From Dehalococcoidia bacterium (GTDB lineage Bacteria > Chloroflexota > Dehalococcoidia > Lucifugimonadales > Australimonadaceae): a DNA stretch of 64,000 nt. The translations under genes were made by a program, and so were the position numbers. The notes beneath the pieces were generated by a model, which had not been told where the DNA came from, ran no database searches, and saw nothing but the letters and a program-made list of their open reading frames with translations. Positions 703-22,545 of this stretch are shown one piece after another. The stretch is taken from positions 1,474,822 to 1,538,821 of the forward strand of contig OZ242210.1 of assembly GCA_965206315.1 (NCBI GenBank), given 5' to 3'. Positions within the stretch are counted from its first letter, which is position 1. Each line of letters opens with the position of its first letter.

Positions 703-905
703 CTCCGTCGTTCCTGCGCAGGCAGGAACCTCGCTCCCTGTCCGCCCCCCTCGCCCCTTGGGAGAGGGCAACGCGCTTTAGCGTGGGTGAGGGTCAGTGG
801 TGCGGGGCGTGTCATCCCGAGCGAAGCGCAGCGGAGCCGAGGGATCTCTCGGGTGCCTGGTCCCTTCCCCCTTGATGGGGGAAGGTTAGGATGGGGGTGA
901 CCTTG
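703..905. repeat. Intergenic cluster of hairpin REP-like repeats (families C, A, 'gtcatcccgagcgaagcg' and D)
   Basis: Contains ttcctgc-gcag-gcaggaa (711-728), ccctcgcccc..gggagaggg..gggtgaggg, gtcatcccgagcgaagcgcagcggagccgagggatc, and ccttccccc-ttgat-gggggaagg. The same units recur at 4160-4365, 10855-10880, 49110-49140, 54913-54962 and 55660-55700. Confidence 0.8.
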
Positions 906-2445: not shown

Positions 2446-4146
2446 TCACGCCCCGTTGCCCATCGGCAGTTCGGGTTGCGCGCCCTCGCGCATGACGTGC
2501 GTCGCCGCGGCGGCGAACTCGCGGAACAGCGGGTGTGGCTGCTCCGGGCGCGAGCGGAACTCCGGGTGGAACTGCACCCCCACCATGAACGGGTGCTTCT
2601 CCAGCTCCACGATCTCGACGAGCGTGCCGTCCGGAGAGAGGCCGGATGCGAGCATCCCCGCCTCGTAGAGCGTTTCCCGGTACGCGTTGTTGAACTCGAA
2701 CCGATGCCGGTGGCGCTCGTTCACCTCCGGCGTGCCGTAGGCCTTCGCGGCCCTGGAACCGTGCGCCAGCACGCACGGGTAGTTGCCGAGGCGCATCGTC
2801 CCGCCCATGTCGTTGACGCTCCGCTGGTCGAGCATCAGGTCGATCACCGGGTCCGGCGTCTCCGGATCGAACTCGGTCGAGTTCGCGCCCGTGAGGCCGA
2901 GGACGTTCCGTGCGTGCTCGATGACCATAACCTGCATGCCGAGGCACAGCCCGAGGTACGGTAATTGACGCTCGCGCGCGTAGCGTACCGCCTGGATCAT
3001 CCCCTCGACCCCCCGGCTGCCGAAGCCGCCCGGCACCACGATGCCGAGCGTGTGGCTGAGCCACGCGTCCGGACCGTCGCGCTCGATGTCCTCCGAGCGC
3101 ACCCAGTCGATGCTCACGTCGCGATCGTGGTACAGCGACGCGTGACGCAGCGCCTCGCGGACCGACAGGTACGCGTCCGGCAGGTCGGCGTACTTGCCCA
3201 CGACCGCGATCGGTAGCGGCCCGTGCGGGTTCGCCATGCGCTCCGTCATCGCCTCCCAGCGCGACAGCCCGTTGCCGTTGCGCGGCGCGAGGCCCAGCTC
3301 ACGCACGAGGATCTCGCCGACGCCCTCCTGTTCGAGCACGAGCGGGGCCTCGTAGATGTTGGACAGCGTCTCCATCGGAATGACCGCGTCCGGGGCCACG
3401 TCGCAGAAGAGCGCTATCTTTTCCTTAATTGAATGGGGGATCGGATGGTCGGACCGACAGATGATGGCGTCCGGCTGGATGCCTATCGCGCGAAGCTCTT
3501 TAACGGAGTGCTGCGTCGGCTTCGTCTTCAGCTCCCCCGTCGCCCCGATGTACGGCAGAAGCGTGACGTGCACGTAGAACGTGTTGCCGCGACCCACCGC
3601 CATCCGCATCTGGCGTATCGCCTCGAGGAACGGCTGACCCTCGATGTCGCCGACCGTACCCCCGACCTCGACCAGCACGACGTCCGGCGCGCCTTCTCCC
3701 TTGTCCCCCCCATCATGTGCATCCTGTCCATCGATGTAAGTTCTTTCCTCCCGCTGCGCCCGAAGCATGAACTCCTTGATGACGTTCGTCACGTGCGGCA
3801 CCGTCTGGATCGTGCCCCCGAGGTGATCGCCGCGACGCTCCTCCCCGAGCAGCTGCGTGTACACCTGCCCCGCCGTGATGTTCGAGTTCGACGTCAGCTC
3901 GATGTCGATGAAACGCTCGTAGTGCCCCAGGTCGAGGTCCGTCTCGCACCCGTCACGCGTCACGAACACCTCCCCGTGCTGGTACGGCGACATCGTCCCC
4001 GGGTCGACGTTCAGGTACGGGTCGAGCTTCTGCACCGCCACCGTCAGCCCCCGGCTCTTCAGGATGCGCCCGATCGCCGCCGCGCAGATCCCCTTCCCGA
4101 TCGAGCTCACCACGCCCCCCGTCACGAAGATGTACTTCGTCGTCAT
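2446..4146 (-). CDS. pyrG: CTP synthase
   Basis: MTTKYIFVTGGVVSSIGKG at the N-terminus and a GATase domain (LGLCLGMQ, HRHRFE). Start is set at the ATG at 4146. The 51 further upstream codons in the ORF track translate REP repeats. Confidence 0.95.
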   Translation of the reverse strand: MTTKYIFVTGGVVSSIGKGICAAAIGRILKSRGLTVAVQKLDPYLNVDPGTMSPYQHGEVFVTRDGCETDLDLGHYERFIDIELTSNSNITAGQVYTQLLGEERRGDHLGGTIQTVPHVTNVIKEFMLRAQREERTYIDGQDAHDGGDKGEGAPDVVLVEVGGTVGDIEGQPFLEAIRQMRMAVGRGNTFYVHVTLLPYIGATGELKTKPTQHSVKELRAIGIQPDAIICRSDHPIPHSIKEKIALFCDVAPDAVIPMETLSNIYEAPLVLEQEGVGEILVRELGLAPRNGNGLSRWEAMTERMANPHGPLPIAVVGKYADLPDAYLSVREALRHASLYHDRDVSIDWVRSEDIERDGPDAWLSHTLGIVVPGGFGSRGVEGMIQAVRYARERQLPYLGLCLGMQVMVIEHARNVLGLTGANSTEFDPETPDPVIDLMLDQRSVNDMGGTMRLGNYPCVLAHGSRAAKAYGTPEVNERHRHRFEFNNAYRETLYEAGMLASGLSPDGTLVEIVELEKHPFMVGVQFHPEFRSRPEQPHPLFREFAAAATHVMREGAQPELPMGNGA

Positions 4147-4159
4147 ACGACACCCCACC

Positions 4160-4365
4160 TTCGTCGTTCCTGCGGAGGCAGGAACCTCGCCTCTGGTGGG
4201 GCAGGGGAGCGGGCGGCCTGGTCCCTTCCCCCTTGATGGGGGAAGGTTAGGATGGGGGTGAACGCGGCGTAGCGGGGTAGGGTGGAGCGGTGTGCCCAAC
4301 TCCCCTCGCCCCCTGGGAGAGGGAAACGCGCAACAGCGCGAGGGTGAGGGTCGCGTGGGTGAGGC
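4160..4365. repeat. REP-like repeat cluster (families C, D, A)
   Basis: Contains cgttcctgcggaggcaggaacctcgc, ggtcccttcccccttgatgggggaaggttaggatgggggtga, and ccctcgccccctgggagagggaaacgcgcaacagcgcgagggtgagggt. Confidence 0.8.
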
Positions 4366-4759: not shown

Positions 4760-7700
4760 GTGAGATTCACCAAGATTCCGCTCATAGCGACATTGATGGC
4801 AGTGGCGCTCTCGCTGCTCATCGTTCTCCCGACGCTGGCTCAGGTCAGCGGCGACCGAACCGACGGCCGGCTCTCCGCCGGCGACTGGATCGACGTCCGC
4901 GTCGCCGACAACATCGACGACCTCAACAACACGCCGGATGAAGCTACTCCGGCCCCTGCGAACATCGGCAACAACGATGATGCGTGGGCCACCGCCACTG
5001 GCGGCGGAGCCTTCAACGCGCGGGACACCTACTTCGACGGCACCCTCTACGTCTCCAACAAGGACGATGCCTACAACACCATCCTCATCACCGCAAAGGT
5101 GAGCGGCACTGGGAACCTCCAGGCTTCGGGCCCGTCCGGTCGTGGAGATGACGCAGCTACTGAGGACAACCCCGACACACCAGCAGTCGAAAACGACGAG
5201 AGTGTGGTCGACTGTTACGATTCGGCTAACGGCGGCGTTGCCATCGCGACCGTCAGGAACAGCCGCAGCAACACCCCGGTCACGGCATTCCTCTTCCCGA
5301 CGAATGAAGATGAAGGCGGCACAGAGATTTACCAGGGTGTAGTCGCCATCCTTGACCAGGAAGACGCCATCGGGCCCCACAACGGCCCTTGTGCCGCCGA
5401 CCAGGTCGAGCCTGAACTCTACTTGGGCTCGGGCGAGCAGATTCTTGACGCCGACCGTGACATCGAGCCCGACCCGGTAGACGACCCCGCCACGGAAAAC
5501 GTCAACGAGCGCACCGTGGCCATCCGCGGCTACAACGACCCCGGCAACGATGACGGCTGGACGCACGCCAGCATGGCGGTGCTCCCCGCCCGCGACGGCG
5601 ACACCCTCACCATCACCGTGAAGGGCGTCTCCGGCTCCGTCCGCCTCGTCGTCGACGGCGCAGCGCCCGAGATCGAGGACGTCTCCCCCGCCTCCGGCGG
5701 CACCCAGAGCAGCACCAGCATCGACCTCGGCTTCACCGTCAGCGACGACGGCTCCGGCATCCGCTACGACGGCGAGTCCGGCGTGAGCGGCGACCCCGAC
5801 CTGACCCCCCACAACGGCGACCGCGACCAGCGCTTTGACGAGCCGATCACGAAGGTGGGCGCTGGCCAGGACCTCACCACTAGTCCCCCCACCTACGTCG
5901 CGGGCGACGGCAGCACCGAAGACATTATGGTGCTCTACGACGACGACGACTCGGGCATGACCATGCAGTATCTCATCAACACCAACTGCGCTAACGGCGG
6001 CACCCAGACGAGTGAGGCCCAGTGTGAATCGGGCGGGACCACGTACGACAACGACTCCAACTCCGCCTACACCGGCTACCTCATCAACTTCGACGCCGCT
6101 GACGATGTCTCCGCGTACGGCAGCAACGGCTGGACGCAGGGTATGAGGGGCGTTACGTACGACCTCGACATGCGCCTCGTGGGCCAGGGCTTCGGCGAGT
6201 ACTTCTGGCAGGTTACCGCCAAGGACCGCGTCGGCAACATGGCCATCACCGACTCCGACGAGGACGACCCCGGCGCACAGCCCTACTCCTTCAAGGTCGA
6301 CGACGAGGGCCCGATGGTCCCGGACGAGGGCGCGCGCACCGGCATCGGCTACGAGCCCGGTGAGGGCGAGTTCAAGAGCCGCTCCTGGATCGCTCTCAGG
6401 TTCGTCAACGAGGACCAGGGCGATGCCGACCGCATCGACGCGGGCACCGTGGAGCCGGGCGACTTCACGGTCGAGGGCCACACGGTCATGAGCGTCGTCG
6501 TCCCGAGCGACAAGAAGGTCTGCAAAGAGGACGACCCGGCGACGGAAGAGGAAGAAGACGCCAAGAACATCGATTCTTTCGATTCCGGTTGTGACTTCGA
6601 GCCCCGCGCACGCATCTACCTGGAACTGGCGGACGCACTCGACTCCGACGAGACGCCCACCATCCAGCTGCTCGGCGGCGTCTTCAAGGACATCGCCGGC
6701 AACAACAACGTCACGCAGTCGCTCGAAAACGTGCAGGACAAGATCGCACCGGGCGTGAGCATCACGATCACCAGCGACAGCGGCGCGACCGGCCGCACCG
6801 CCACGGACGACGAAGGCTCCTTCACCGTGCGCGTCACCTCGGACGAGGATCTGCGCACCTTCCCGCGCCTCTTCTTCGCCACCCTCGAGGGCGAGGCGGA
6901 CGTCGACGATGGCGTCGGCGGCACAGCAAGTAACCTCGTGATCAGGGAAGCGACCACCACCCCACCGGACGGCAAGGAGCTGACCGAGAAGGAATCGAAC
7001 GTCTGGGAGAAGTCGTTCGAGGACGATGACATCGAGGGCGACGACGACCGGATCGTGGCGGTCGTCATCACCGCCGAGGACGAGGAAGGCAACAGCGGCA
7101 ACAGCGCCGGCTGGAAGGACAGCGACAGCAACGGCATCCCGAGTGCGGGCGACTCGCTCGACTTCAAGAAGCTGGACGCCGGCGGCTTCCTCCTGGAGAT
7201 CGACAGCGCCTTGGCGGCGGCGGAGATCGAGGTGCTGCCGTCCACCGACCCCGGTGAAGTCACGGACGAGACGGAGAGCCCGAACCCGTACATCCAGATC
7301 ACCTTCAGTGAACAGGATGAATACGGGATCCGCGTCACCGACGACAAGGGCACCACGGCCGAGAACGCCCCGGCAGTGGGGGACCCGGACTACGATGCCA
7401 ACTACGACCCGACCGACGACGACGAGAGGGGTACGTCCAGGAAGATAGACATCGGTGACGGTGACACGGCGAGGACGGACTCGCACCGCAGCGTCGAGAT
7501 TACGGCGATCACGCTCAACGGCAACGACATGCTGGCCGATATCGTCCAGGTCGACCCGTGGAAGTACGTGCTCGCGGTCACCGGCCTCGAGATCGGCGAG
7601 TACGAACTCGTCTACTCGGCCCGGGACGACGTCGGCAACGACGTCGAGGACGAGGACGAGACGTTCGAGGTGCTCGAGCGCCAGCCGTACGACATCGAGC

Positions 7701-8215
7701 TCCAGCCCGGCTGGAACCTCATCTCCCTCCCCGGCGACCCGTTCAACCCCGCCGTGGGCAGCGTCATCGGCGCCGACCTCAGGGCCGACACCGTCCTCGG
7801 CTACCAGGGCGGCGAGTGGGTCACCGCCGTCAAGAACGACGACGGCCGCTGGCAGGGCACGCTGGTCGACATCGTGGGTGGCTACGGCTACTGGGTGCGG
7901 ACCACCGCGGTCGAGACCATCGAGGTCGTGATTCCGCCCATCCTGCCGACCTCTAACCTGCCGACCGTGCCCGTGGTCTCCGGGTGGAACCTGCTGGGCG
8001 TCGTGGACGCAGACCAGACGAACATCGGCAACGAAGGCGACAGCGAAGACGCTGACGAGTACTTCACCAGCCTGAACACCTGGCGTGTGGCCTACAGCTT
8101 CGCGACCCAGCAGAACCAGTGGTCCAAGCTGCTGCCCGGCCAGGCCGACCACATGGTGGAGAACGGCAAGGGCTACTGGGTCTGGGTCACCCGCCCGGGC
8201 ACCCTCGTCCCGTAA
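4760..8215 (+). CDS. large acidic secreted protein, surface-layer-like family, paralog 1 (1151 aa)
   Basis: GTG start preceded by an SD. Signal peptide MRFTKIPLIATLMAVALSLLIVLPTLAQ. D/E/T-rich. The order of conserved blocks is shared with 12750-15677, 15805-19398 and 40184-43228, and the protein ends NGKGYWVWVTRPGTLVP. Confidence 0.85.
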   Translation: MRFTKIPLIATLMAVALSLLIVLPTLAQVSGDRTDGRLSAGDWIDVRVADNIDDLNNTPDEATPAPANIGNNDDAWATATGGGAFNARDTYFDGTLYVSNKDDAYNTILITAKVSGTGNLQASGPSGRGDDAATEDNPDTPAVENDESVVDCYDSANGGVAIATVRNSRSNTPVTAFLFPTNEDEGGTEIYQGVVAILDQEDAIGPHNGPCAADQVEPELYLGSGEQILDADRDIEPDPVDDPATENVNERTVAIRGYNDPGNDDGWTHASMAVLPARDGDTLTITVKGVSGSVRLVVDGAAPEIEDVSPASGGTQSSTSIDLGFTVSDDGSGIRYDGESGVSGDPDLTPHNGDRDQRFDEPITKVGAGQDLTTSPPTYVAGDGSTEDIMVLYDDDDSGMTMQYLINTNCANGGTQTSEAQCESGGTTYDNDSNSAYTGYLINFDAADDVSAYGSNGWTQGMRGVTYDLDMRLVGQGFGEYFWQVTAKDRVGNMAITDSDEDDPGAQPYSFKVDDEGPMVPDEGARTGIGYEPGEGEFKSRSWIALRFVNEDQGDADRIDAGTVEPGDFTVEGHTVMSVVVPSDKKVCKEDDPATEEEEDAKNIDSFDSGCDFEPRARIYLELADALDSDETPTIQLLGGVFKDIAGNNNVTQSLENVQDKIAPGVSITITSDSGATGRTATDDEGSFTVRVTSDEDLRTFPRLFFATLEGEADVDDGVGGTASNLVIREATTTPPDGKELTEKESNVWEKSFEDDDIEGDDDRIVAVVITAEDEEGNSGNSAGWKDSDSNGIPSAGDSLDFKKLDAGGFLLEIDSALAAAEIEVLPSTDPGEVTDETESPNPYIQITFSEQDEYGIRVTDDKGTTAENAPAVGDPDYDANYDPTDDDERGTSRKIDIGDGDTARTDSHRSVEITAITLNGNDMLADIVQVDPWKYVLAVTGLEIGEYELVYSARDDVGNDVEDEDETFEVLERQPYDIELQPGWNLISLPGDPFNPAVGSVIGADLRADTVLGYQGGEWVTAVKNDDGRWQGTLVDIVGGYGYWVRTTAVETIEVVIPPILPTSNLPTVPVVSGWNLLGVVDADQTNIGNEGDSEDADEYFTSLNTWRVAYSFATQQNQWSKLLPGQADHMVENGKGYWVWVTRPGTLVP

Positions 8216-8339: not shown

Positions 8340-8995
8340 ATCCTGCCTCCCCTCATCGGCGCTAGCGCGCCCGCCCTCACCCGCCGGGAACACCCTCACC
8401 CACGCACTTTCAGTGCGCTCCCTCTCCCAGAGGGCGAGGGTAGGGAACCGGGCCCCCTCTGAGTGAGGGTCCCCCCCAGGACGCGGGGCAATAGCCCCCG
8501 TCATTCCAGCGAACGCGGGAATCCAGTGGCCTGGCCCCCCGGACGCGGGGCACAGCCCCCGTCATTCTCGCGAAGGCGGGAATCCAGAAGAAGAGCGGAG
8601 CGATGCCGGTCTGACCCCTCGCCCCCTGTGGTGAGGCGCGGTGGGTGTTCCTACCCCTCGCCCCCTGGGAGAGGGAAACGCGCGCCAGCGCGAGGGTGAG
8701 GGCCAACGTGTGACACGCACCCATTGCGCGGACCCGCCCCCATGCCCCACCATGGAACGCGACACCCAACCGAATACCGGACCGACACCCTCGCGGACGA
8801 GCCGCGGGAAAGGGCGCAAAGCCTCCTGAGAGCCAGGAGGCTTTTCCCTTTAAACCCTCACCCGCCACTTCGTGCCTCCCTCTCCCCCAGGGCGAGGGGG
8901 GGAACCGGGGGCCTCCCTGTCTGGCCCCTCGCCCCCTGGGAGAGGGCAACGCGCCTTGGCGTGTGGGTGAGGGTCAATTAATCGGTGGAGAAGAC
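8340..8995. repeat. large mosaic REP-like repeat array
   Basis: Successive units of families B (gcgcccgccctcacccgcc...ccctctccc), E (gtcattccagcgaacgcgggaatccag; gtcattctcgcgaaggcgggaatccag) and A (ccctcgccccctgggagagggaaacgcgcgccagcgcgagggtgaggg). A unique segment at about 8700-8850 interrupts the array. Confidence 0.8.
8818..8851 (+). terminator. intrinsic-terminator-like hairpin with T-rich tail (aaagcctcctg-agagc-caggaggcttt-tccctttaaa)
   Basis: 11-bp stem followed by a T-rich tail, which is unusual in this GC-rich window. It closes a non-repeat segment of about 150 nt. Confidence 0.45.
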
Positions 8996-8997
8996 CT

Positions 8998-10971
8998 ATG
9001 ACCGCCGTGCTCGAAGACTACAAGAACGACCCCGTTGCCTTCGTCGAGGAGGTCCTCGGCCACCCCCCGCCCTACGAGAAGCAGCGGGAGATCCTCCGCA
9101 CCGTCGCCGATGAGCGCCGCACCAGCGTCGTCGGCGCCAACGGCTCCGGCAAGGACTGGGCCGCCGCCCGCACCATGCTCTGGTGGCTCGCCACCCGCCG
9201 GCAGGCCATCGCCGTCGCCACCGGCCCCACCCAGCGACAGGTCGAACAGATCGTCTGGCGCGAGATGCGCGCCGCCTGGAAAGCCTCCAACGTCGACCTC
9301 GGCGGACGCATGAGCGGCTCCCAGTGGAACATCGCCGACGACCGCTACGCCATCGGCTTCTCCACCAACAAGGCCGACAACCTCCAGGGCTTCCACTCCC
9401 CGGAGCTCCTCGTCGTTGTCACAGAGGCCCACGCCATGCCGCAGGACCAGATGGAGGCCCTCAAGCGCCTCTACCCCGCCCGCATGCTCCTCACCGGCAA
9501 CGCCTTCTCCCGTGACGGCGAGTTCTTCGACTCCCACCACACCAAGCGCCACATCTACACCGGCGTCACCATCTCCGTCTACGACACCCCCAACTTCACC
9601 GGCGAGAACGGCGGCGCCCCCGGCATGCCCACCGAAGAAGACATCGAGGAGCGCAAACTCGACTGGGGCGAGGACCACCCCCTCTACCAGGGCTCCATCC
9701 TCGCCAAATTCCCCGACATGCTCGACGACTCCCTCCTCTCCCGCTCCGCCATCGAAGCCGCCGTCACCCGCTGGGAAGAGGGGGGAGAGGGCAACGCGCT
9801 ACGCGCCCCCGTCCCCCTCCCTCGCCCCCTGGGAGAGGGGGAGGAACCCTCCGCCCCCGTCCCCATCCCTCGCCCCCCGGGAGAGGGAAACGCGCCTTGG
9901 CACGAGGGTGAGGGTTCCCCTGCGTCCCCCTCTTCGGCGCTGTCGCGCCCGCCCTCACCCGCCGCTGCTGCGCGGCTCCCTCTCCCCCAAGGAGAGGGGG
10001 AGGAACCCTCCGCCCCCGTCCCCATCCCTCGCCCTCTGGGAGAGGGAAACGCGCGCCAGCGCGAGGGTGAGGGTTGCCCCCCGCCCCCTGATCCCACCCC
10101 TCGCCCCCTGGGAGAGGGAAACGCGGTTCACCGCGAGGGTGAGGGTGTTCCCCACCGCGAGGGTGAGGGTGTTCCCCACCGCGAGGGTGAGGGTTGCTCC
10201 CCGCCCCCCGATCCTTCCCCTCGCCCCTCGGGAGAGGGCGATCTCCCCACCCCTCGCCCCCTGGGAGAGGGAAACGCGCCCCAGCGCGAGGGTGAGGGTG
10301 CCCCCCGGCGCGTGGGTGAGGGCCCCCGCCTCGGCGTCGACGTCGCCCGCTTCGGCTCCGACCACACCGCCCTCTGCGTACGCCGAGGCTGGCGCGTCGA
10401 GTCCCTCCGCTCCTTCTCGCGCGTCGACACCATGCGCACCGCGGGTGAGGCTGCCGCACTCGTACGCGACCGCGACATCCCTGCCGTCTTCGTCGACGAG
10501 GGCGGCCTCGGTGCGGGCGTCGTCGACCGCCTCCGCGAGCTCGAGGTCCCCGTGCACGGCGTCCAGTTCGGCGGCAAGGCCCGCCAGTCCGGACGCTTCG
10601 CCAACAAGCGCGCCGAACTCTTCTGGGAGCTCCGGCGCCTCTTCAACGACAACCTCATCGCCATCCCCCGTGACGAGGAGCTCATCAGCCAGCTCCTCGG
10701 CCTCCGCTACGACGTCACGAGCGCCGGACAGGTCAAGATGGAGAGCAAGTCCTCCCTGCGCCGCCGCGGCCTCCGCTCCCCCGACAAGGCCGACGCCCTT
10801 GCCCTCGCCTTCATGGAGCCCCCCTCGCTCCAGATCTGGACCGGCCCCCCGTCCGTCGTTCCTGCGGAGGCAGGAACCTCGCATTTGCCCCCCGTCCGCG
10901 ACTCCACCTCCTGGCCCTCCTCCCCCTCCACCTCCCCCGAAACCCTCCGCAACCGCTTGGGGGTGTGGTAA
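8998..10971 (+). CDS. phage terminase large subunit-like protein, interrupted in frame by a REP array (possibly decayed or domesticated)
   Basis: N-terminal ATPase part with a Walker A-like VVGANGSGKD and a Walker B-like ELLVVVTEAH. C-terminal RNaseH-like nuclease part GVDVARFGSDHTALCVRRG ... KADALALAF. Residues about 262-440 are a translation of REP units (PLGEGNARQREGEG). The ORF tail reads into a family-C hairpin (VVPAEAGTS). Confidence 0.7.
   Translation: MTAVLEDYKNDPVAFVEEVLGHPPPYEKQREILRTVADERRTSVVGANGSGKDWAAARTMLWWLATRRQAIAVATGPTQRQVEQIVWREMRAAWKASNVDLGGRMSGSQWNIADDRYAIGFSTNKADNLQGFHSPELLVVVTEAHAMPQDQMEALKRLYPARMLLTGNAFSRDGEFFDSHHTKRHIYTGVTISVYDTPNFTGENGGAPGMPTEEDIEERKLDWGEDHPLYQGSILAKFPDMLDDSLLSRSAIEAAVTRWEEGGEGNALRAPVPLPRPLGEGEEPSAPVPIPRPPGEGNAPWHEGEGSPASPSSALSRPPSPAAAARLPLPQGEGEEPSAPVPIPRPLGEGNARQREGEGCPPPPDPTPRPLGEGNAVHREGEGVPHREGEGVPHREGEGCSPPPDPSPRPSGEGDLPTPRPLGEGNAPQREGEGAPRRVGEGPRLGVDVARFGSDHTALCVRRGWRVESLRSFSRVDTMRTAGEAAALVRDRDIPAVFVDEGGLGAGVVDRLRELEVPVHGVQFGGKARQSGRFANKRAELFWELRRLFNDNLIAIPRDEELISQLLGLRYDVTSAGQVKMESKSSLRRRGLRSPDKADALALAFMEPPSLQIWTGPPSVVPAEAGTSHLPPVRDSTSWPSSPSTSPETLRNRLGVW
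9775..10325. repeat. REP-like array inserted inside the terminase-like ORF
   Basis: About 10 family A/B units. They include cgcgagggtgagggtgttccccac repeated in tandem (10130-10200). Confidence 0.8.
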
Positions 10972-11530
10972 TGGGGAACACCACTCATGGCGCTATCGCG
11001 CCCGCCCTCACCCGCCCGCTATCGCGGCCTCCCTCTCCCCCAAGGAGAGGGGAGGGGACCGGGGCCCCTTCGCTATTCCCTTCCCCTCGCCCTCCGGGAG
11101 AGGGAAACGCGGTTCACCGCGAGGGTGAGGGTTGCCGCCCTTGCCTGCTCCCCTCGCCCCCTGGGAGAGGGAAACGCGCGCGAGCGCGAGGGTGAGGGCT
11201 GCCCCCGCCCCTCGCCGGGAACACCCTCACCCGCCACTTCGTGCCTCCCTCTCCCAGGGGGAGAGGGGAAAGAATGAAGGCGCCCGCCTTCCCATCCCTC
11301 GCCCCCTGGGAGAGGGCAACGCGCCCCAGCGCGAGGGTGAGGGTTGCCCTGTGCGCCAGCACGTGGGTGAGGGCTGCTCCCCTCGCCCCCTGGGAGAGGG
11401 AAACGCGCCCCAGCGCGAGGGTGAGGGTTGCCCTGCGCGTCACCGCGTGGGTGAGGGCTGCCGCCCCTGTCTGGCCCCTCGCCCCCTGGGAGAGGGCAAC
11501 GTGCGTCAGCACGTGGGTGAGGGTTTAAAA
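10850..11530. repeat. mosaic REP-like repeat array
   Basis: Family C hairpin (10855-10880), then alternating B and A units up to the DUF559 start. Confidence 0.8.
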
Positions 11531-11537
11531 TCCCCCC

Positions 11538-11885
11538 ATGGACTTCACCTCGAGAGCCCGCGGCCTCCGCCGCACCTCCACCGATGCGGAGCGACTGCTA
11601 TGGCAGCGGGTACGCAACCGAGCACTCGACGGGCACAAGTTCCGCAGACAGGTCCCCATCGGCCCATACATCGCCGACTTCGTCTGCGTCTCCGGAGGAC
11701 TGATCATCGAACTGGACGGGAGCCAGCACCACGAACAAACACCTGAAGACCAAGAGCGCACGCGATCGCTCGAAGGCGCCGGCTACCGCGTCCTCCGCGT
11801 CTGGAACAACGACGTCCTCCATCGCATGGACAAAGTACTGAACGCAATCATGGCCGAACTGAACGCAACCAAGGAGGACAGCTGA
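11538..11885 (+). CDS. DUF559 (Vsr-like) endonuclease domain protein
   Basis: Motifs TDAERLLWQRVRNR..GHKFRRQVPIGPYIADFVC....IIELDGSQH.........D..R...LEGAGYRVLRVWNNDVL are typical of the DUF559 family. Confidence 0.9.
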   Translation: MDFTSRARGLRRTSTDAERLLWQRVRNRALDGHKFRRQVPIGPYIADFVCVSGGLIIELDGSQHHEQTPEDQERTRSLEGAGYRVLRVWNNDVLHRMDKVLNAIMAELNATKEDS

Positions 11886-12500
11886 TGTGGAGTGTCAGTG
11901 GCGCTGTCGCGCCCGCCCTCACCCGCCGCTACGCGCCGCGCTTCAGCGCGCCCCCTCCTCCCCCAAGGAGAGGGGAGGGGACCGGGGCCCCCTGTCTGAC
12001 CTCCCTCGCCCCCTGGGAGAGGGAAACGCGCGTGAGCGCGAGGGTGAGGGTTGTCGCCACCGCGAGGGTGAGGGTGCCCCAGCTGATGTGGAGTGTCAGT
12101 GGCGCTGTCGCGCCCGCCCTCACCCGCCGCTACGCGCCGCGCTTCAGCGCGCCCCCTCCTCCCCCAAGGAGAGGGGAAAGAATGAAGGCGCCCGCCTTCC
12201 CATCCCTCGCCCCCTGGGAGAGGGAAACGCGCGCCAGCGCGAGGGTGAGGGTTGCCCCCTTGCCTAGCTCCCTCGCCCCCTGGGAGAGGGAAACGCGGTT
12301 CACCGCGAGGGTGAGGGTGTTCCCCCGGGTGAGGGTCGCCCATTGTCTGGCCCCCTCGCCCCCTGGGAGAGGGAAACGCGCGCCAGCGCGAGGGTGAGGG
12401 TCGCCCCCTTGCCTGCTCCCCTCGCCCCCTGGGAGAGGGAAACGCGGTTCACCGCGAGGGTGAGGGTTGTCCCCTCCGTGAGGGCGAGGGTTGCCCCCTA
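11886..12500. repeat. mosaic REP-like repeat array, including a 98-nt direct duplication that starts inside the DUF559 stop region
   Basis: 11879-11976 and 12080-12177 are identical (cagctgatgtggagtgtcagtggcgctgtcgcgcccgccctcaccc...). Family A units follow each copy. Confidence 0.8.
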
Positions 12501-12506
12501 TCCTCA

Positions 12507-12535
12507 TTGACACACGCGCCGTCCGCTGGTAGAAA
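12507..12535 (+). promoter_or_regulatory. candidate promoter of surface-protein paralog 2 (TTGACA-17-TGgTAGAAA)
   Basis: TTGACA at 12507-12512 and TAGAAA at 12530-12535. Same architecture as 4516-4545. Confidence 0.5.
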
Positions 12536-12749
12536 GAACCTTGCGTGTTGACGCAGGCACATACACGAGGCGATTGGCCGGAACTGCTCTCTGCATCCTA
12601 TTGCAAGGGCGGCGGCTCTCGTTGGACAATAGCATCCCTGCCATGCCGCGCAGCACTTTGCGCGCACGCAGACACAGACGAATAACGGACCACCCTGCTC
12701 TCGGAGAGAGCGCCAAGCCCAAGACTACAGCTCCATAAGGGGGGTAGAA
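12536..12749 (+). promoter_or_regulatory. conserved 5' leader of paralog 2
   Basis: Nearly identical to 4546-4759. Confidence 0.5.
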
Positions 12750-15677
12750 GTGAGATTCACCAAGATTCCGCTCATAGCGACATTGATGGCAGTGGCGCTC
12801 TCGCTGCTCATCGTTCTCCCGGGACTCGCACAGTCCTCTGGCTACGACGACACCCGGGGTACGCTCTCCAGCGGCTCCAGCCTGACGGTTTCTGTCGTGG
12901 ACACGCTTGGGACGACGTTGACTGGCGACCGCACTGGCTTCGAGGACACCGGAGCAGAGGTGCTTGCCGGCTCCTACTTCAACGGCACTCTCTACGTCTC
13001 GAACGACGATGACGCGCACAACCTGGTGCGGATCTCCGCTGTGGGCGGCTCCACCACCGAGTTCGCGGGGCCGTCCGGCTCTACGACGGATGTTCCCGAT
13101 GCTGCCAATGACACGCCGGATGACCCGACCACGGACGCAAACGAGTTCGCCGCCGCTTTCGACGAATCATCGGACAACGTCGACTGTGTCGTGGCGACGG
13201 TGCGGAACAACCGCAGCGGAAAGCGGATCAGCGTCAGCCTGAACAACGACACTGCGAATTCCACAGGACTCCTGAACTCGGTGGTCTTTGCGGTCGTCCC
13301 GAACGGCTTGGAGGAGATGAACAACGGCACCAGGGCGTGCGGCGAGGAAGCCGCTGATGACCCGGTGGCGGTTACTACACTCAGTGCCACTGACGGCACC
13401 GCCGTAACGGGTGCCACGGACACCGCAGACGGCGCGCGCATGCCGGCGCGCCACGGCGACACCCTGACCATCACGGTGAGGGGCGTCTCCGGCAGCATCA
13501 CCATCAAGGTCGACGCCGAGGGGCCGGAGTTCTCCGAGATCTCCCCCGAGCACGGCGCCTTCATCAGCTCCCAGACCGTCAAGTTCCGCTTCGTCGTCAG
13601 CGACTCCGACTCCGGTCTCGCGCACGACGGCGAGCTCGACTACTCCCAGGGCGACCGGGACGCGCGCGCCTACAACACCGACGGCGACAACTTCACGACC
13701 TCCGAGCCCCGCTCCGTGGTAACCACCGGCCAGTCCCGGGATATCCAGGTGATGATGGATGGCGGCGACCAGAGCGGGAACGGCAGCAGCGGCTGGCGCC
13801 AGCGCGGCGACCGGCCCGGCGTCTCCTACTTCCTGGACATGGCCGTCACCAACGTTTCTGAGGGCTCCAACCCCTGGTACCTGCAGGCCACCGACCGCGC
13901 GGGCAACACGGACCGCACCGACTCCAGCGCGAGCAAGGACGGCGACCAGCCCTTCAGCCTGACCGTCGACGTCTCCTCGCCGGAGTTCAGGGACGCCCGC
14001 ACGGGCATCTCCTACGACTCCGACAAGAAGAAGGAGGTCGTCAACCGCTCCTACATCGCGGTGACGTTCGAGGACGCGGACAGCCTCGATGCCGTGATGA
14101 ACATCGACCACACCAAGTTCCTCGTCGAGGATGCCGAGGTCGTCGGCGCCATCCACCTCTCCGACGACTCGGACTGCGACGAGGACGAGCCTCTGGACAT
14201 AGACGGGGTCTGCATCACCGACGACCAGGTGCCGGGCTCCCGCATCTACCTTGAACTGGCCGAGCCGCTCGCCCCCGACGCCGCACCCCTGGTTTCCATG
14301 TTTGGCGGCGCCGCGCTCGACCTCGCCGGCAACCCCAGCAACCAGGATGAGGTTACCGCAGCGGACAACATCGCTCCGGCCATCACGGTCACGATCGCCA
14401 CGGAGGTCGGCGACCGCCCGGTCATCAGGAACAATGGCGAAGTCACCGTCAGCATCAGCTCGGACGAGGACCTGCGCCGCCTGCCGACCGTCTACTTCGC
14501 CGAAGTCGTGGTGCATGCTGACTCGACAGAGGCGAAGCCGGTCCAGGGTCTGGGCGGCGTGCGCCGCGGCGACCGCGTGCAGACCGGCTCGGACGACAAC
14601 TCCTGGATGCGCGTCTACAACAACGGCGACGTCGGCAGTGATGACGCGCTCTACACGGTCATCGTCGTCGCCGAGGACGACGCGGACAACGTCGGCTCCA
14701 CGCCTGGCTGGACGCGGGACAGGAAGACCAAGGTGCCCGAGTCCGGCCACAAGGCCACCCTCGCGGATCTCACGGCAGGCGGTCTGCTCTTGGAGATCGA
14801 CACGGCCGCGAACGCCGGCAACGACCCCGACTTCTCGCTCTCCCCGCAGTCTGATGAAGGCGAGACGGAGAGCAACAACCCGTACGTCACCATCGATCTG
14901 ACCGACGAGGAGAAGGAGTACAGCGCGGCGCTCAAGGGCGACTCGCACACTGCAGTTGCGCTCGTCTCCGTCACGCTGAACGGCAACGACGTGAGCGACC
15001 ACGTCGCCGAGGTGGAGGACAACAAGTACACGTTCGCTGGGCAGAACCTCGGCATCGGCGAGTACGAGTTGAAGGTCACCGGCCGCGACGACGTTGGCAA
15101 CGAGGTGTCGGACACCTACGAGTTCGAGGTCACGGCGCGGGCTGCGTACGAAGTGGACCTCATACCGGGCTGGAACCTTGTCTCGGTGCCGGGCACCCCG
15201 CTCGACTCCAGCGTCCAGTCGGTCATGGGCGACACCATGCAGGCAACCATCGTGCTGGCCTACCAGGACGACGCATGGCTCACCGCCGTCAACGACAACG
15301 GCACGTGGCGCGGGACCCTCACCGACATCGTCGGCGGCTACGGCTACTGGGTCCAGACCACCGCCTTCGAGTCCATCTCGGCCCTGATCCCGGAGACGGA
15401 CACCTCGTCCATCCTCCCGACGGCCAGCGTCATCGCGGGCTGGAACCTGCTCGGCGTCGTGGACGTCCTGCAGGCCGACGCCGGCGACCCGCCGTCCGGC
15501 GGCGATGAGGCCGACGACTACTTCGACAACATCGAGTGGAAGGTCGCCTACTCCTTCAACACTTCGGAGAACACGTGGGCGAAGTCCATACCGGGCGACG
15601 GCGACAACGACGACGAGATCGTCAACGGCAAGGGCTACTGGGTCTGGAGCACGGAGGCCGGCACGCTGGTCCCGTAA
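12750..15677 (+). CDS. large acidic secreted protein, surface-layer-like family, paralog 2 (975 aa)
   Basis: GTG start. The first ~70 nt of the CDS are identical to paralogs 1 and 3. The protein ends NGKGYWVWSTEAGTLVP. Confidence 0.85.
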   Translation: MRFTKIPLIATLMAVALSLLIVLPGLAQSSGYDDTRGTLSSGSSLTVSVVDTLGTTLTGDRTGFEDTGAEVLAGSYFNGTLYVSNDDDAHNLVRISAVGGSTTEFAGPSGSTTDVPDAANDTPDDPTTDANEFAAAFDESSDNVDCVVATVRNNRSGKRISVSLNNDTANSTGLLNSVVFAVVPNGLEEMNNGTRACGEEAADDPVAVTTLSATDGTAVTGATDTADGARMPARHGDTLTITVRGVSGSITIKVDAEGPEFSEISPEHGAFISSQTVKFRFVVSDSDSGLAHDGELDYSQGDRDARAYNTDGDNFTTSEPRSVVTTGQSRDIQVMMDGGDQSGNGSSGWRQRGDRPGVSYFLDMAVTNVSEGSNPWYLQATDRAGNTDRTDSSASKDGDQPFSLTVDVSSPEFRDARTGISYDSDKKKEVVNRSYIAVTFEDADSLDAVMNIDHTKFLVEDAEVVGAIHLSDDSDCDEDEPLDIDGVCITDDQVPGSRIYLELAEPLAPDAAPLVSMFGGAALDLAGNPSNQDEVTAADNIAPAITVTIATEVGDRPVIRNNGEVTVSISSDEDLRRLPTVYFAEVVVHADSTEAKPVQGLGGVRRGDRVQTGSDDNSWMRVYNNGDVGSDDALYTVIVVAEDDADNVGSTPGWTRDRKTKVPESGHKATLADLTAGGLLLEIDTAANAGNDPDFSLSPQSDEGETESNNPYVTIDLTDEEKEYSAALKGDSHTAVALVSVTLNGNDVSDHVAEVEDNKYTFAGQNLGIGEYELKVTGRDDVGNEVSDTYEFEVTARAAYEVDLIPGWNLVSVPGTPLDSSVQSVMGDTMQATIVLAYQDDAWLTAVNDNGTWRGTLTDIVGGYGYWVQTTAFESISALIPETDTSSILPTASVIAGWNLLGVVDVLQADAGDPPSGGDEADDYFDNIEWKVAYSFNTSENTWAKSIPGDGDNDDEIVNGKGYWVWSTEAGTLVP

Positions 15678-15804: not shown

Positions 15805-18800
15805 GTGAGATTCACCAAGATTCCGCTCATAGCGACATTGATGGCAGTGGCGCTCTCGCTGCTTATCGTGCTGCCGGGTATCGCGCAGACCGGCGACCTC
15901 ACCGACGGCAAGCAGTCCAGCGGCGTTGTCGACGTTGGTGTCTTCGACGACATCACGGACGCGCAGATGGCCAAGCTGACGAACAGCGCGAGCGACGTCG
16001 CGGGAGTCGACAGCATCGACTCCGGTGTCTTCATCCCCAGAGACACCCCTGTGCGCCAACACGGCACTGAAGCCGTCCACTCCTCGGGCGACCTCGCATA
16101 CTTGGCCGAAAACACAGTCTCCCCCCAGGACACGTTCTTCAAGAACACGCTCTACGTCTCCAACGATGGGAACGCCTACAACACCGTCCTCATCAACGTT
16201 AGGAGCGACGAAACCGCCACCTGTGACACTACCGACGGTACCGTTGCCAACGTGATGGCGACGGTGCGGAACAACCGCGCCGGCGGGGACCCGATAACGC
16301 TCGAGCTCGCCCTGTCGAGCACTGCTGGCAACTTCCAGGCGTTCTTCAAGGTCGTCGAGGACGGTGATGAGGGCACCCTCGTGGATGCTACCGGCACTGC
16401 GGTTGCGGGTGAAGACCCCGTCCCGTTCACCGAGCACGGCGGCCCGACGTGGTGTGCGGACACCAGCACCTACGACCACGACGACGACACCACCACCACA
16501 GAGATCCAGCGTGAGAGCACAGCGGCTACCGCGGGCTACAACCCGGTGCAGCAGGACCCGAATGCGAACCCGCCGACCCGCGGGGAGATTGCGACGATCT
16601 TCGCAGACCACGGCGACCGGCTGACCATCACGACGAACGCCGGTTCCGGCCAGATCGAGCTGGTGGTCGACGGCGAAGGCCCTGAGTTCACCGCCGTCAC
16701 GCCGGACGACAACGCGGTGTTGGAAGCCAGGGACGTCACGTTCAGCTTTGAGGTGCGGGACGACGACTCCGGCCTCCGCCACGACGGCGAGAGCGTCATC
16801 TCCCCTGACGGCGACTACGACGAGATCAATCCGGACGGCGACCACAACCTCGGCTCCGAGCCGCTCTCTGTGGACCCGGAGACGGCGGTCAACTCGAACG
16901 GCGAGTCCGCGGACATCGACGTGAACGTTGCGCCGAACCCGCGGAGCAAGACCGAGACGCCCACCGACCCGGAGTGGGACGACATCAGCGCGTCCGGCAC
17001 GTGGCGGATGGCCGGCAACCGCGCGGGCGTCGCCTACGCCTTTACGGCCGGCGCTCACAGGAACGATGACGCGTCCTACCTCTACCAGATTGAGGCCACC
17101 GACCGCGCGGGCAACAAGAACGCGACCGACGCGGAGTCCGACACGGACAACGTGGATGAGCCGTACGTCTTCCGCGTGGACAACACGGACCCCGACCTGA
17201 TCGATGCCCGGACGGGCATCACCTGGGACTCTGACAAGGACACGGAGGTGGTGGACCGCTCCTACGTCGCGCTGACGTTCAACGACGGCGCCGACGGCGG
17301 CGGGGACCCGCTTGGCGACGTCGACACCGACAACATCACCGTGGTCGGCTACACCATCGTGGGCTTCATTCACCCGAGTGAGAGGCCGGCCATCGACAGG
17401 AACCTGGGCATCCCGAAGCGGGCGAACTTCTCACCCACCAACATCCGGTACACGCCCGCTGAGCCATCCGGCACGCGACCGTCGCTGGTAGAGCCCACCA
17501 ACGACAATGCGTACACTGCGGCTTTGGCCGTGACGCCGGACTCAGACCGGACAACCGCGCAGAACAATCTTCTGCTCCTTGAGGGCCGGTTCGTTCACTA
17601 CGCGATAATCGACGCGCAGCCTGACGAGGCCAATGGGGACTCGCCGGAACCCGCCGAGCCGACCAGCACAGAGCCCGACTGTGACGACCTTGGCGAACTC
17701 ACCGCCGCCAACGTGGAGCTTTGTGGACAATGGGACCAGCACGAGATAGACAAGGCTGCGTATGACGCTGCCGAGGATGCCAAGGAAGCGGCAGACGAGG
17801 AGCACCAGGCTGCCGTCGACGCGTACAACGCTGCCCCCGGCAAGGACATCGTGGGCGGCGACATCGCAGACCCGCGCTCCCGCGTCTACGTGGAGCTCTC
17901 CGAGGACCTCCCGGCCGACGCCGAGCCGGATGTGGTGGTGATCGGCGGCGCGGTGCATGACCTTGCCGACAACACCAACGACGCGAAGACGGTCGATTCC
18001 GAGGACTGGATCGCGCCGAGCCTGACGGTGACCGTAACGGGTACCGCGAACGACCGCCCGGTCATCAACGGCGATGGCTCGTTCTCGATCGATGTGCGGT
18101 CGGACGAGGACCTGGCACGGCGCCCGGTGGTCTTCTTCGTGAGCATCGCAGCCACGCAGACCGAGGGCGAAGACACGGAGACAACCAACGACGACGAGTA
18201 CGAGTATGCCATCGATATGAGGGACGAGGCCTCCGCGCTGACGCAGGCGGAGGATGAGAACCACTGGACCAAGAAGTACAAGAGGTCCAGCATCGATGAC
18301 AGCGTCGGCACCGGCCTGATAGGCATCGTCGTGCTCGGCAAGGACTCGGAGGACAACTCCGGCGCGACGACGGGCTGGTCGCCCGACATGCACCGGAACG
18401 CCGGGAACCCCGCTGCGGACGACGAGCTGACTCTGTCCAAGATGGACGACGCGGGCCTGCTGGTCGAGATTGACGAAGAGTTCAACGCCGACGTGGACGA
18501 GGACCTCGGCGAGGTGACGCCGCGGAGCGACGACAAGGCGACCACGGAGAGCGCCAACCCGTTCGTCAAGCTCACCTTCGGGAACGAGGGCAAGGAGTAC
18601 AGCCTCGACGGGTTCAGCGGCGCGGACTCGCACAAGACCGTTACCGTGACGGAGATTACGCTGAACGGCGACGACGTCATGGCCCACCTGAACCGCGTGA
18701 GCTCGACCGAGTTCTCACTGGTGCTGCGCGACCTCGCGGTCGACTCCTACGAGGTCGTGTTCACGGCCGAGGACGATGCGGGCAACGAGTTGGAGGACGG

Positions 18801-22447: not shown

Positions 22448-22545
22448 CTGGATTCCAGCATTCGCTGGAATGACGATGCCCTCCATACCATCCGGTACCC
22501 TCATCCCAGCCCTCTCCCCTTGTAGGGAGAGGGAGCAAGAGGACG
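22448..22545. repeat. REP-like hairpins (family E and ccctctccc-cttgta-gggagaggg)
   Basis: ggattccagcattcgctggaatgacg and ccctctccccttgtagggagaggg. Confidence 0.7.

Follow-up and report, generated by a model that had tools for sequence, protein, structure and literature searches.

Repeats of the BoxC/PIT class, also described as intrastrand triplex motifs, have been known in Escherichia coli for about 30 years and occur in hundreds of genomes, where they are tied to instability; their function, spread and partner protein are unexplained. Here we analyze an accumulation of such repeats in a 64-kb stretch of DNA (the window; all coordinates are positions in it) on contig OZ242210.1 of GCA_965206315.1, a sponge-associated Chloroflexota genome, together with two genes lying among them, one for a protein related to the terminase large subunit (TerL-like) and one for a DUF559 nuclease. 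The elements, formerly BoxC or PIT and now TMECO, follow the pattern CCCTCNCCC-N3-6-GGGNGAGGG-N3-GGGNGAGGG, and 3610 copies were found in 262 proteobacterial genomes, with a maximum of 143 per genome (Holder et al. 2015, PMC4666352). In E. coli they were always intergenic, were not found in association with transposons, phages or plasmids, had neither promoter nor terminator activity and were linked to locus instability (PMC4666352). The same sequences have been described as HPGQ, a G-quadruplex-hairpin switch (Kaplan et al. 2016, PMC5100583).

Two further systems of structured repeats bear on this locus. NTS/SRM hairpins are demonstrated targets of the Ssn GIY-YIG single-strand nucleases, and ssn genes are typically bracketed by them, on at least one side in 71% and on both sides in 42% of cases (Chenal et al. 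2025, PMC11893778). SRM number follows the presence of ssn, and 81% of SRM-rich genomes have an ssn gene. Repetitive extragenic palindromic sequences (REPs), including those in bacterial interspersed mosaic elements (BIMEs), form the other system with RAYT, a tyrosine transposase of the IS200/IS605 type, and REPs carrying a CGTC tag have been classed as having no dedicated transposase (Di Nocera et al. 2013, PMC3733652).

A first-pass annotation of the window had reported dense arrays of at least five hairpin families, A to E, and the repeats were indeed present at those coordinates far above chance. Allowing up to 3 mismatches, the core 21-mer CCCTCGCCCCCTGGGAGAGGG matched the window 28 times against 0.02 expected, a number reached by none of 100 shuffled sequences, and 24 of the 28 matches fell in 8420-12439. 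A three-stem pattern search of 8393-12466 revealed 16 full plus-strand units with an 18-nt second loop and 7 minus-strand units, besides approximately 8 "tail-only" units consisting of the hairpin and GGGTGAGGG. The density of full units was about 5.6/kb in 8.3-12.5 kb (23 units) compared with 0.13/kb in the other 59.8 kb (8 units). The arrays are a real, unusually dense cluster of known repeat kinds, making up approximately 4 kb of a 2.87-Mb contig, and the window around them consists of core chromosome, with panC, rho, pyrG, dnaK/grpE, the citrate synthase gene, ccm genes and the ATP synthase operon among its contents. The locus is organized as follows.

8340-8703, unstranded: array 1a, with a minus-strand triplex unit at 8393-8440 and an extra CCCTCACCC at 8374, E hairpins at 8499-8526 and 8560-8587, a partial unit at 8616-8640 and a full plus-strand A unit at 8655-8702
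8704-8850, plus strand: leader of the TerL-like gene, opening with GTGACACGC.CCC.TTGCGCG (promoter-like by eye) and closing with a terminator-like hairpin (agcctcctgagagccaggaggctttt)
8855-8973, unstranded: array 1b, an inverted doublet of a minus-strand unit (8855-8898) and a plus-strand A unit (8926-8973), ending 24 nt before the TerL-like start codon
8998-10971, plus strand: TerL-like gene, 657 aa (phrog_2 terminase large subunit, E = 9e-33)
9775-10325, plus strand: array 2, intragenic and in frame, with full plus-strand A units at 9867, 10026, 10098 and 10251, units of stems 1 and 2 only at 9819 and 10218, a minus-strand B unit at 9952-10004, the 24-nt tail three times at 10129-10202 and a tail at 10306-10322
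10975-11530, unstranded: array 3, with a minus-strand B unit at 11005-11056, plus-strand A units at 11084, 11151, 11296, 11380 and 11476, a minus-strand unit at 11224-11267, tails at 11351-11373 and 11435-11457, and an 84-nt period twice (93%)
11538-11885, plus strand: DUF559 nuclease gene (Vsr-like PD-(D/E)XK fold), 115 aa, YcjD-like (Pfam PF04480)
11886-12500, unstranded: array 4, with two blocks (minus-strand B 11916, plus-strand A 12003, tail 12058; minus-strand B 12117, plus-strand A 12204), then plus-strand A 12270, tail 12327, plus-strand A 12353 and 12419 and tail 12474, with periods of 201 nt and 149 nt

Judged by their letters, A, B and D are repeats of the BoxC/PIT/TMECO intrastrand triplex class, forming a variant rather than plain members, since the second loop of A/B units is mostly 18 nt and not 3 nt. 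In an A/B unit the C-rich stem CCCTCGCCC is separated by a 3-nt loop from the G-stem GGGAGAGGG, and a second loop then leads to the mirror G-stem GGGTGAGGG; B, which had been listed as a family of its own, is a diverged A unit in the opposite orientation. The published stem order, CCCTCNCCC and then GGGNGAGGG, was found throughout, the 16 plus-strand units reading CCCTCGCCC-cct-GGGAGAGGG exactly or with one change and the 7 minus-strand units being variants of it. The third stem, GGGNGAGGG mirroring stem 2, was also present, as GGGTGAGGG follows every full unit, and the core matches the TMECO pattern and the E. coli copies of Holder et al. (PMC4666352). The 3-nt second loop of the published pattern occurs only at 61515 and 22498, with 5 nt at 49232, whereas 17 of the 31 units in the window carry 18 nt with a nested hairpin. 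Family D, with 4 copies in the window (CCTTCCCCC-ttgat-GGGGGAAGG-tta-GGATGGGGG), follows the same logic in other letters, a Watson-Crick hairpin plus a mirrored G-strand (GGGGGAAGG / GGATGGGGG).

The nested hairpin, of 5-7 bp and 18 nt in all, is the usual form in this lineage. Among 24 distinct 48-nt units from this and related genomes compensatory changes were found in 5 of its 7 pairs, giving a covariation score of 0.211 compared with 0.087 for shuffled alignments; none of 500 shuffles reached this value and slid controls failed, indicating that the hairpin itself is selected. Over more than 400 units the length of the second loop was bimodal (3-5 nt and about 18 nt), and other phyla carry different nested hairpins at the same position. 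The predicted hairpin energy was -29.1 kcal/mol (z = -3.2). Position 6 of stem 3 tracked position 4 of stem 2 with an odds ratio of 4.3 in 448 loosely defined units, significant but in a noisy sample with false third stems and related sequences, so that this three-way covariation is only suggestive of a triplex as opposed to a hairpin. The exact 21-mer, scanned in one genome per species, was present in at least 116 loci from Chloroflexota, Cyanobacteria, Planctomycetota, Binatia, Acidobacteriota, Deinococcus, Spirochaetota and several Proteobacteria classes; among the matches listed, it is followed in almost all by a variable stretch and then GGGTGAGGG. Rfam gave no match at gathering thresholds for any unit family or for the 8704-8850 leader. 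At E <= 1 only sub-threshold miRNA-like models and Whalefall-1 appeared, and these were rejected as chance hits or look-alikes produced by the long imperfect palindromes of minus-plus doublets.

Families C and E can be assigned by sequence to the CGTC-tagged REPs, equivalent to NTS/SRM hairpins. Compared with the Neisseria NTS consensus CGTCATTCCCGCGMAVGCGGGAATCYRG, E has 1 mismatch at 8499-8526, 8560-8587 and 55748-55775, 2 at 52359 and 3 at 22448, and C (CGTCGTTCCTGCGGAGGCAGGAAC) is a more distant CGTC hairpin variant. No GIY-YIG gene was found in the window. In relatives, small GIY-YIG genes lie between C/E hairpins, in the orthologous gap of one related locus (L118) and twice in another (L204). 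These genes, of 89-116 aa, are as follows.

L204 2183-2533 and 9935-10285: GIY-YIG genes in gaps around the surface-gene/TerL cluster
L118 8805-9074: GIY-YIG gene in a gap around the same cluster, among CGTC hairpins

They are likely to be Ssn-type cassettes which alternate with the DUF559 cassette at homologous sites.

The description of the repeats as REP/BIME-like was appropriate in that they are dispersed, structured, mosaic and array-forming; as a family assignment it did not hold, the units having three stems and no GTAG tag, with CGTC in C and E. The spread of classical REP/BIME elements by a RAYT encoded elsewhere in the genome would explain why the repeats are dispersed, structured, intergenic and mosaic and why some form inverted doublets, and yet we consider it very improbable. 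The core is conserved to the base across phyla, whereas RAYT-linked REPs are, as far as is known, lineage-specific. Among approximately 50 window ORFs (open reading frames) scanned with Pfam there was no Y1_Tnp (PF01797), RAYT, transposase or integrase, as the first-pass annotation had said of RAYT. The units also have neither the GTAG tag nor the simple palindrome of RAYT-linked REPs (PMC3733652), no association of E. coli BoxC with transposons, phages or plasmids was found (PMC4666352), and CGTC-type REPs are published as RAYT-less (PMC3733652) and as Ssn targets (PMC11893778). Since the units are BoxC-type and CGTC repeats, RAYT is not the expected partner, and the candidates are DUF559, within the array, and the Ssn-type GIY-YIG proteins of L118 and L204.

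The local tandem amplification noted earlier was recovered with TRF, which returned periods of 24, 72, 84, 149 and 201 nt, and a further period of 48 nt was found: 24 nt repeated 3.0 times at 10129-10202 (96%), 149 nt 1.8 times (95%), 84 nt twice (93%) and 72 nt twice (85%). The duplication reported as 98 nt at 11879/12080 exists, but measures 201 nt, repeated 1.9 times at 11879-12254 (91%), and takes in the final 7 nt of the DUF559 gene. Near-identical periods of 24-201 nt are hard to assemble, and the unitigs break at each unit, which would fit a misassembly, or low-complexity sequence expanded at this site alone, in place of members of a dispersed family. We regard this as highly unlikely. 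The window has units at seven or more further sites and many other genomes contain them, comparable arrays stand at the same sites in independently assembled related genomes, and the intragenic array keeps a 657-aa frame with a downstream domain under purifying selection. Furthermore, every unique segment and every repeat junction, 11472-11929 (unit-DUF559-unit) among them, was matched at 100% identity by unitigs from 4 runs of 3 samples, and both DUF559 junctions were also recovered in a run from a separate study. These read-level data are k-mer unitigs which break at every repeat; they therefore confirm junctions, array length being beyond their reach, and the unitig "joints", which are de Bruijn ambiguities among repeat copies, were left uninterpreted.

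Array 2, which had been placed between genes, lies inside the TerL-like ORF. The protein consists of a terminase-type ATPase domain (residues 1 to about 260), a repeat-built hinge (about 260-445), in which array 2 reads as PRPLGEGNA.QREGEG, and a nuclease domain (about 445-615), and one family-C hairpin is read in frame near its C-terminus (10854-10881, SVVPAEAGTSH). The arrays had been described as open in all six frames; the three intergenic arrays contain 1-9 stops per frame and stop-free frames occur only in the intragenic array (two plus, one minus). Within array 2 the ORF frame has no stop compared with 8 in the third plus frame, all 7 TGA triplets of GGGTGAGGG sit in one non-coding plus frame, and the unit spacings of 159, 72, 24, 24, 105 and 24 nt are all multiples of 3. 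Comparison of the window with three orthologous loci gave dN/dS values of 0.06-0.32 in the ATPase domain, and the nuclease domain, which follows the array, had values of 0-0.13. Both domains are under purifying selection. The constant phase, the absence of stops and the low dN/dS downstream indicate that the gene is maintained, most likely as one polypeptide through the array.

A search for homologues of the TerL-like protein returned 857 in the length range used, and 120 of these, of 393-748 aa, were listed. They occur several per genome, and most of the named ones among those listed are Chloroflexota of sponge metagenomes. Alignment of 14 homologues and inspection of the 120 revealed two highly conserved domains joined by a hinge of variable length, 13-285 aa in the 61 homologues where anchors delimited it, with at least 6 repeat types. 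Repeat-derived peptides of families A, C, E and others stand at the same hinge in many of the listed homologues: PRPLGEGNA.QREGEG (family A), LPSPSGRGAGGEG (classical triplex motif), VVPAEAGTS (family C), SPRHSSERWNP (family E), CHSERSAAEPRNLSG, ERSPRDVSASLNMT and others. Near-hingeless homologues (P0033 and P0116, 445 aa) are single ORFs. The array therefore has the features of an in-frame intragenic repeat: a kept frame, no stop, conserved flanking domains and insert-free homologues. Between L117 and L119, two strains from one sample, dS was 0.05 in the domains and the hinges were wholly different, indicating that hinge turnover is fast relative to point substitution.

A gene broken by the array, present as a pseudogene or as two genes with an accidental 657-aa ORF, could be proposed because two of the three plus frames contain no stop over the array and many units have a length divisible by 3, so that an open frame is less improbable here than in ordinary DNA. 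This seems to us quite unlikely, since the C-terminal domain lies in the same frame with dN/dS of 0-0.13 in four lineages, a single ORF spans the hinge in many of the 120 homologues listed, and insert-free homologues are single ORFs. Sponge metatranscriptome contigs of a close relative cover both domains and the junction of hinge and nuclease domain, a weak indication in view of possible DNA carry-over. We hold the identity of the units and the in-frame hinge with great confidence. The warning that gene callers emit spurious proteins from the repeats applies to the intergenic arrays, which give false "PLGEGNA" ORFs and N-terminal extensions such as that of pyrG, and not to the PLGEGNA..REGEG stretch of the TerL-like protein, which is probably real protein and most likely translated.

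The segment 8704-8850 had been counted as part of the first array and contains no repeat DNA; it is the conserved TerL-like leader. All TerL-like genes examined, orthologues as well as unlinked paralogues (L117-L121, L204), have this leader 165-450 nt upstream. Its consensus starts with GTGACACGCGCCC(A/C)TTGCGCG, and in the window, L120 and L121 TATGGT-like and CGCGGACGAGCCGCGGGAA segments and a closing terminator-like hairpin were recognized by eye. It may be a promoter with an attenuator, or a small RNA. Copies lie at the following positions.

L120 7747-8000: TerL-like leader
L121 7836-8000: TerL-like leader
L117 6712-7000: TerL-like leader
L118 6552-7000: TerL-like leader
L204 3283-3491: TerL-like leader

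TerL-like genes are present in 3-4 copies per genome and stand alone, with no portal, capsid or small terminase gene nearby. The paralogues of L120, L121 and L122 occur in unrelated housekeeping contexts, often by small genes of toxin-antitoxin type (DUF4160/DUF2442, BrnA, HicA, RHH). The TerL-like protein was considered as a mobiliser of the repeats and dropped, given these unrelated contexts and the lack of any units around the paralogue of L122.

The only gene lying between the repeats of the arrays, absent from the first-pass annotation, encodes the DUF559 nuclease and is framed by inverted triplex units. Its product matched PF04480 with E = 1.8e-40 (137.7 bits, cut-off 20.6) and the solved structure PDB 3HRL with E = 1.3e-24, with conserved ELDGxQH and RxWN motifs; the NCBIfam YcjD model PRK09767 gave 96.6 bits, under its cut-off. 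The brackets are as follows.

11476-11523, plus strand: left bracket, a full A unit ending 14 nt before the DUF559 start codon
11916-11979, minus strand: right bracket, an inverted B-type unit starting 31 nt after the DUF559 stop codon and preceded by a GGCGC-TGTC-GCGCC hairpin

From the motif side, DUF559 genes were present in 4 of the 116 motif loci listed, and all 4 were bracketed within about 60 nt. Because of these tight brackets the reverse test was run from the gene side, using 80 metagenomic DUF559 relatives (51-61% identical) with their flanks, of which 62 loci were non-redundant. In the non-redundant loci a unit lay within 200 nt upstream in 68%, downstream in 65% and on both sides in 52%, and 29 of the 32 innermost bracket pairs had the orientation (+)gene(-). 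In the full set of 80, at least one bracket was found in about 81%, and unit density was 5.0/kb within 200 nt of DUF559 compared with 0.13/kb farther off, a 39-fold difference. The two brackets of one gene were more alike than brackets of different genes (0.85 and 0.70, respectively; 0 of 2000 permutations). In E. coli K-12, which has 23 BoxC sites, the 3' end of the DUF559 gene ycjD lies inside a degenerate unit; part of another ycjD 3' end comes next, and TMECO no. 9 of the table of Holder et al. is 168 nt from the ycjD stop codon. The link between DUF559 and triplex units is thus statistical and positional; no report connecting DUF559 or ycjD with BoxC was found in the literature searched. 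In two of the four metagenome runs (X3, X4) the unitig 11472-11929 had 2.5-4 times the k-mer depth of the adjoining TerL unitigs (67 and 15 in one, 113 and about 46 in the other), with no excess in the other two runs; the cassette may be present in additional identical copies, whether in this strain or in others.

The same gap was compared in related genomes. Six related loci share the order pyrG - surface gene - TerL-like gene - surface genes and a near-identical leader of approximately 250 nt, whereas the DNA between the TerL-like gene and this leader differs completely from genome to genome, and unit number and family also differ between orthologous loci at the same three sites.

12500-12749, plus strand: conserved promoter/5'-leader of the next surface-protein gene, near-identical in the window, L117, L118, L119, L204 and L205, everything leftward being different

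This leader marks the fixed right edge of the variable gap, whose contents were:

Window: DUF559; triplex-motif arrays; 14 full triplex units
L204: DUF559 (79% identical to that of the window); triplex units; 4 full units
L205: DUF559 (73% identical); triplex units including an array of 87-nt period; 14 full units
L118: GIY-YIG; flanking CGTC hairpins; no full triplex unit
L117 and L119 (near-identical here): no nuclease gene; eight tandem 40-nt GTCATGTTGAGCG units, one degenerate triplex unit and one NTS hairpin; no full unit

Nuclease family and repeat family thus go together in this gap, in a comparison that is small (three against two independent cases). The eight 40-nt copies, at L117 8846-9170 and L119 5992-6316, represent a further hairpin-repeat family, read as "SLNMT" or "AQHD" peptides in the TerL hinges of other homologues, with no partner gene in view at L117/L119.

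The observations on the arrays could be explained as follows. Units build up only where extra DNA is tolerated, that is, in intergenic gaps and in the disordered hinge of the TerL-like protein, inside which selection would keep only stop-free inserts of length 3n, so that the array is translated. Once seeded, an array would grow or shrink by slippage or unequal recombination of multi-unit blocks, a process suggested by the tandem periods and consistent with the instability reported by Holder et al. (PMC4666352). Triplex-type units would be the cognate DNA of the DUF559 nuclease in the array, which would recognise the folded unit on single-stranded DNA and nick beside it; repair or copying of the nicks would seed new units and destabilise the locus. 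Recognition by DUF559 is proposed because RAYT-REP and ssnA-NTS show like bracketing. With the observed and conjectural parts weighed together, we judge the whole explanation to be probable, though by no means secure. Its weakest point is that DUF559 would be the specific partner enzyme of these units, a proposal made by analogy which we put forward only tentatively.

Alternatively, DUF559 may be a passenger, a selfish homing-type nuclease gene inserted into units or doublets as safe havens, with the units, either orphans or elements of the host, spreading and multiplying by recombination and slippage without a dedicated enzyme. Most units are far from any DUF559 gene, and some sites with arrays have none in cis. 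Homing endonucleases such as I-Bth0305I are among the Vsr-like folds, matched brackets would also be expected from insertion into the centre of a palindromic doublet, and the GIY-YIG gene in the same gap of relatives suggests that the gap is a general landing pad. On the other hand, doublets in the arrays are (-)(+) with stem 1 central, while the cassette is (+)gene(-) with stem 3 facing the gene, so that splitting the common doublet would not by itself yield the cassette. In addition, DUF559 pairs with triplex units and GIY-YIG with CGTC hairpins, the latter pairing being one of sequence-specific cleavage (PMC11893778). We consider the passenger explanation possible without being probable; it accounts for much of the same data.

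Besides that overlap, several observations weigh against DUF559 as the partner enzyme and against the explanation built on it. The association gives no direction, and DUF559 could have inserted into pre-existing units as a passenger. In 112 of the 116 motif loci listed there is no DUF559 within 8 kb, and L117 and L119, with no DUF559 at the locus, carry triplex units in the upstream gap and the TerL hinge, so that any DUF559 action would have been in trans or in the past. The window brackets differ in subfamily (A left, B right), unlike the matched pairs common elsewhere. The window DUF559 protein has no exact match on record and a closest homologue only 82% identical, which gives no evidence of recent mobility, and the gene is syntenic in L204 and L205 at 73-79% identity; this copy looks like old vertical inheritance. 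No activity of DUF559 on these repeats was found in the literature searched. TMECO formed a triplex as a single strand in vitro and none in double-stranded DNA or detectably in vivo (PMC4666352), so that the relevant structure may be a hairpin, a triplex or a G-quadruplex. Array order and internal length rest on one assembly. DUF559 may mobilise the units, only maintain them, or home into them as a passenger.

Outside the arrays, units of A/B, C/E and D were found at many sites of the window, as the first-pass annotation had claimed, and are not confined to this locus. A unit of any family was present in about 11-12 of the 28 gaps longer than 30 nt (roughly 40%), well short of the "almost every intergenic gap" that had been reported. 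The dispersed units are:

748, 4303, 22498, 49155, 49232, 50446 and 61515: A/B-type units (pattern search)
710, 4166, 22448, 49118, 52359, 55619 and 55748: C/E units (pattern search)
862, 4223, 54919 and 55665: D units (pattern search)
748-793, plus strand: A-type unit with a 16-nt second loop, filling the panC-rho gap with a C hairpin (710-729) and a D unit (862-897)
4166-4350, plus strand: C (4166-4185), D (4223-4258) and A (4303-4350) units upstream of pyrG
22498-22533, minus strand: near-classical unit (pattern search)
49118-49266, unstranded: cluster of C at 49118 and an inverted doublet, minus-strand 49155-49203 and plus-strand 49232-49266, the latter with a 5-nt second loop
50446-50493, minus strand: A unit bordering a low-GC island, its second loop 18 nt long
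61515-61546, minus strand: classical unit, CCCTCTCCT-ga-GGGAGAGGG-tta-GGGTGAGGG, in which the second loop is N3, as in TMECO

The longest pyrG ORF (2446-4299, minus strand, TTG start, 617 aa) extends approximately 54 codons upstream of the CTP-synthase domain into the C/D/A units at 4166-4350; the domain begins at residue 55 and orthologues are called at 548-565 aa. This N-terminal extension is spurious and repeat-derived. At 55763-55837 a 19-nt tandem repeat (CGCAGGAATGACGGAGTAA, 3.9 copies, 94% matches), beside the NTS-like unit 55748-55775 and the D unit 55665-55700, looks from its letters like the repeated half of a CGTC-type hairpin (GGAATGACG). Repeat units at 50446-50493 and 52359-52386 edge an island at 50500-52400 with a GC content of 0.51 compared with about 0.67, whose ORFs 50840-51247 and 51300-52301 had no Pfam match; it is probably a horizontally acquired insert.

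The arrays had been said to lie between surface-gene copies, and these proved to be true paralogues, 37-41% identical. Three such secreted proteins, of 975-1297 aa and with identical signal peptides (MRFTKIPLIATLMAVALSLLIVLP), frame the arrays.

4760-8215, 12750-15677 and 15805-19398 (also 40184-43228): tandem secreted paralogues with a conserved C-terminal module

Between related genomes they share 58-87% nucleotide identity compared with 88-94% for the neighbouring TerL gene, indicating faster divergence, and apart from Big_13 in one of them they gave almost no Pfam signal. They may be a fast-evolving family of S-layer proteins or surface antigens.

The locus is the most extreme form of BoxC/PIT/triplex motifs so far, with arrays, a nested covarying hairpin which the published patterns would not pick up and translation within a gene. 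It also sets DUF559 between inverted units, and the same gap offers a natural comparison of DUF559/triplex with GIY-YIG/CGTC. By analogy with the known pairs, YcjD-type DUF559 proteins could be the missing partners of these repeats, a third independent nuclease-repeat partnership after RAYT-REP and Ssn-NTS; this is a possibility which we rate as less than even. If true, the nuclease would recognise the folded three-stem unit together with its lineage-specific nested hairpin, and one intergenic landing pad in these sponge-associated Chloroflexota would alternate DUF559/triplex and Ssn/CGTC cassettes, neither of which would amplify the repeat of the other. With ycjD and the bracket statistics across phyla, the locus makes the partner hypothesis testable in E. 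coli.

In comparison with BoxC/PIT/TMECO, the window units have the same three 9-nt stems and 3-nt first loop (CCCTC[G/T]CCC - N3 - GGGAGAGGG - loop - GGGTGAGGG), and in two or three cases (61515, 22498, 49232) also a short second loop. They are likewise multi-copy and dispersed, occur as single units and inverted doublets, are linked to locus instability and have no known transposase. They differ in that most carry an 18-nt second loop with a covarying hairpin, outside the published N3 pattern and the ITxF limits (loops of 1-6 nt). The window has 23 units in 4.1 kb as against the published maximum of 143 per genome. One array lies within a gene and is translated, whereas an always intergenic location was reported for E. 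coli, and the host belongs to the Chloroflexota whereas the 262 genomes of the published census are proteobacterial. The array also encloses a DUF559 gene, a link absent from those papers.

The likeness to NTS/SRM-Ssn consists in E, which is the NTS consensus with 1 mismatch, in C, a CGTC hairpin, in the GIY-YIG genes among such hairpins in L118 and L204, and in the layout repeat-nuclease-repeat. The bracket frequencies of DUF559 (52% on both sides in the set of 62, about 81% on at least one side in the set of 80) equal or exceed the 42% and 71% behind the discovery of Ssn (PMC11893778). The window, however, has no GIY-YIG gene, its dominant repeat is not SRM, and the embedded nuclease is of another fold (Vsr-like PD-(D/E)XK), with predicted activity. 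With the REP/BIME-RAYT system, or REPtron, the locus shares short structured repeats in mosaics and one small nuclease-type gene that is bracketed while most copies have no gene. It differs in lacking an HUH/Y1 enzyme in the window and a GTAG tag, in having three stems instead of a 20-40-bp palindrome, and in a core conserved across phyla.

Rickettsia palindromic elements, which are in-frame intragenic palindromic repeats, resemble array 2 in being in frame at a permissive site and kept as peptide, with flanking domains under purifying selection. The same likeness holds for the intragenic REPs of Di Nocera et al. 2013 (PMC3733652). Unlike either, the window has a whole array in one hinge (551 nt, about 185 aa, roughly ten units plus partial units), and in many homologues the same TerL hinge has been filled anew by different repeat families. 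Both the class of repeat and its in-frame insertion were already known, and what is new in the BoxC/triplex class is the nested-hairpin second loop, the array form, the translated copy and the Chloroflexota host.

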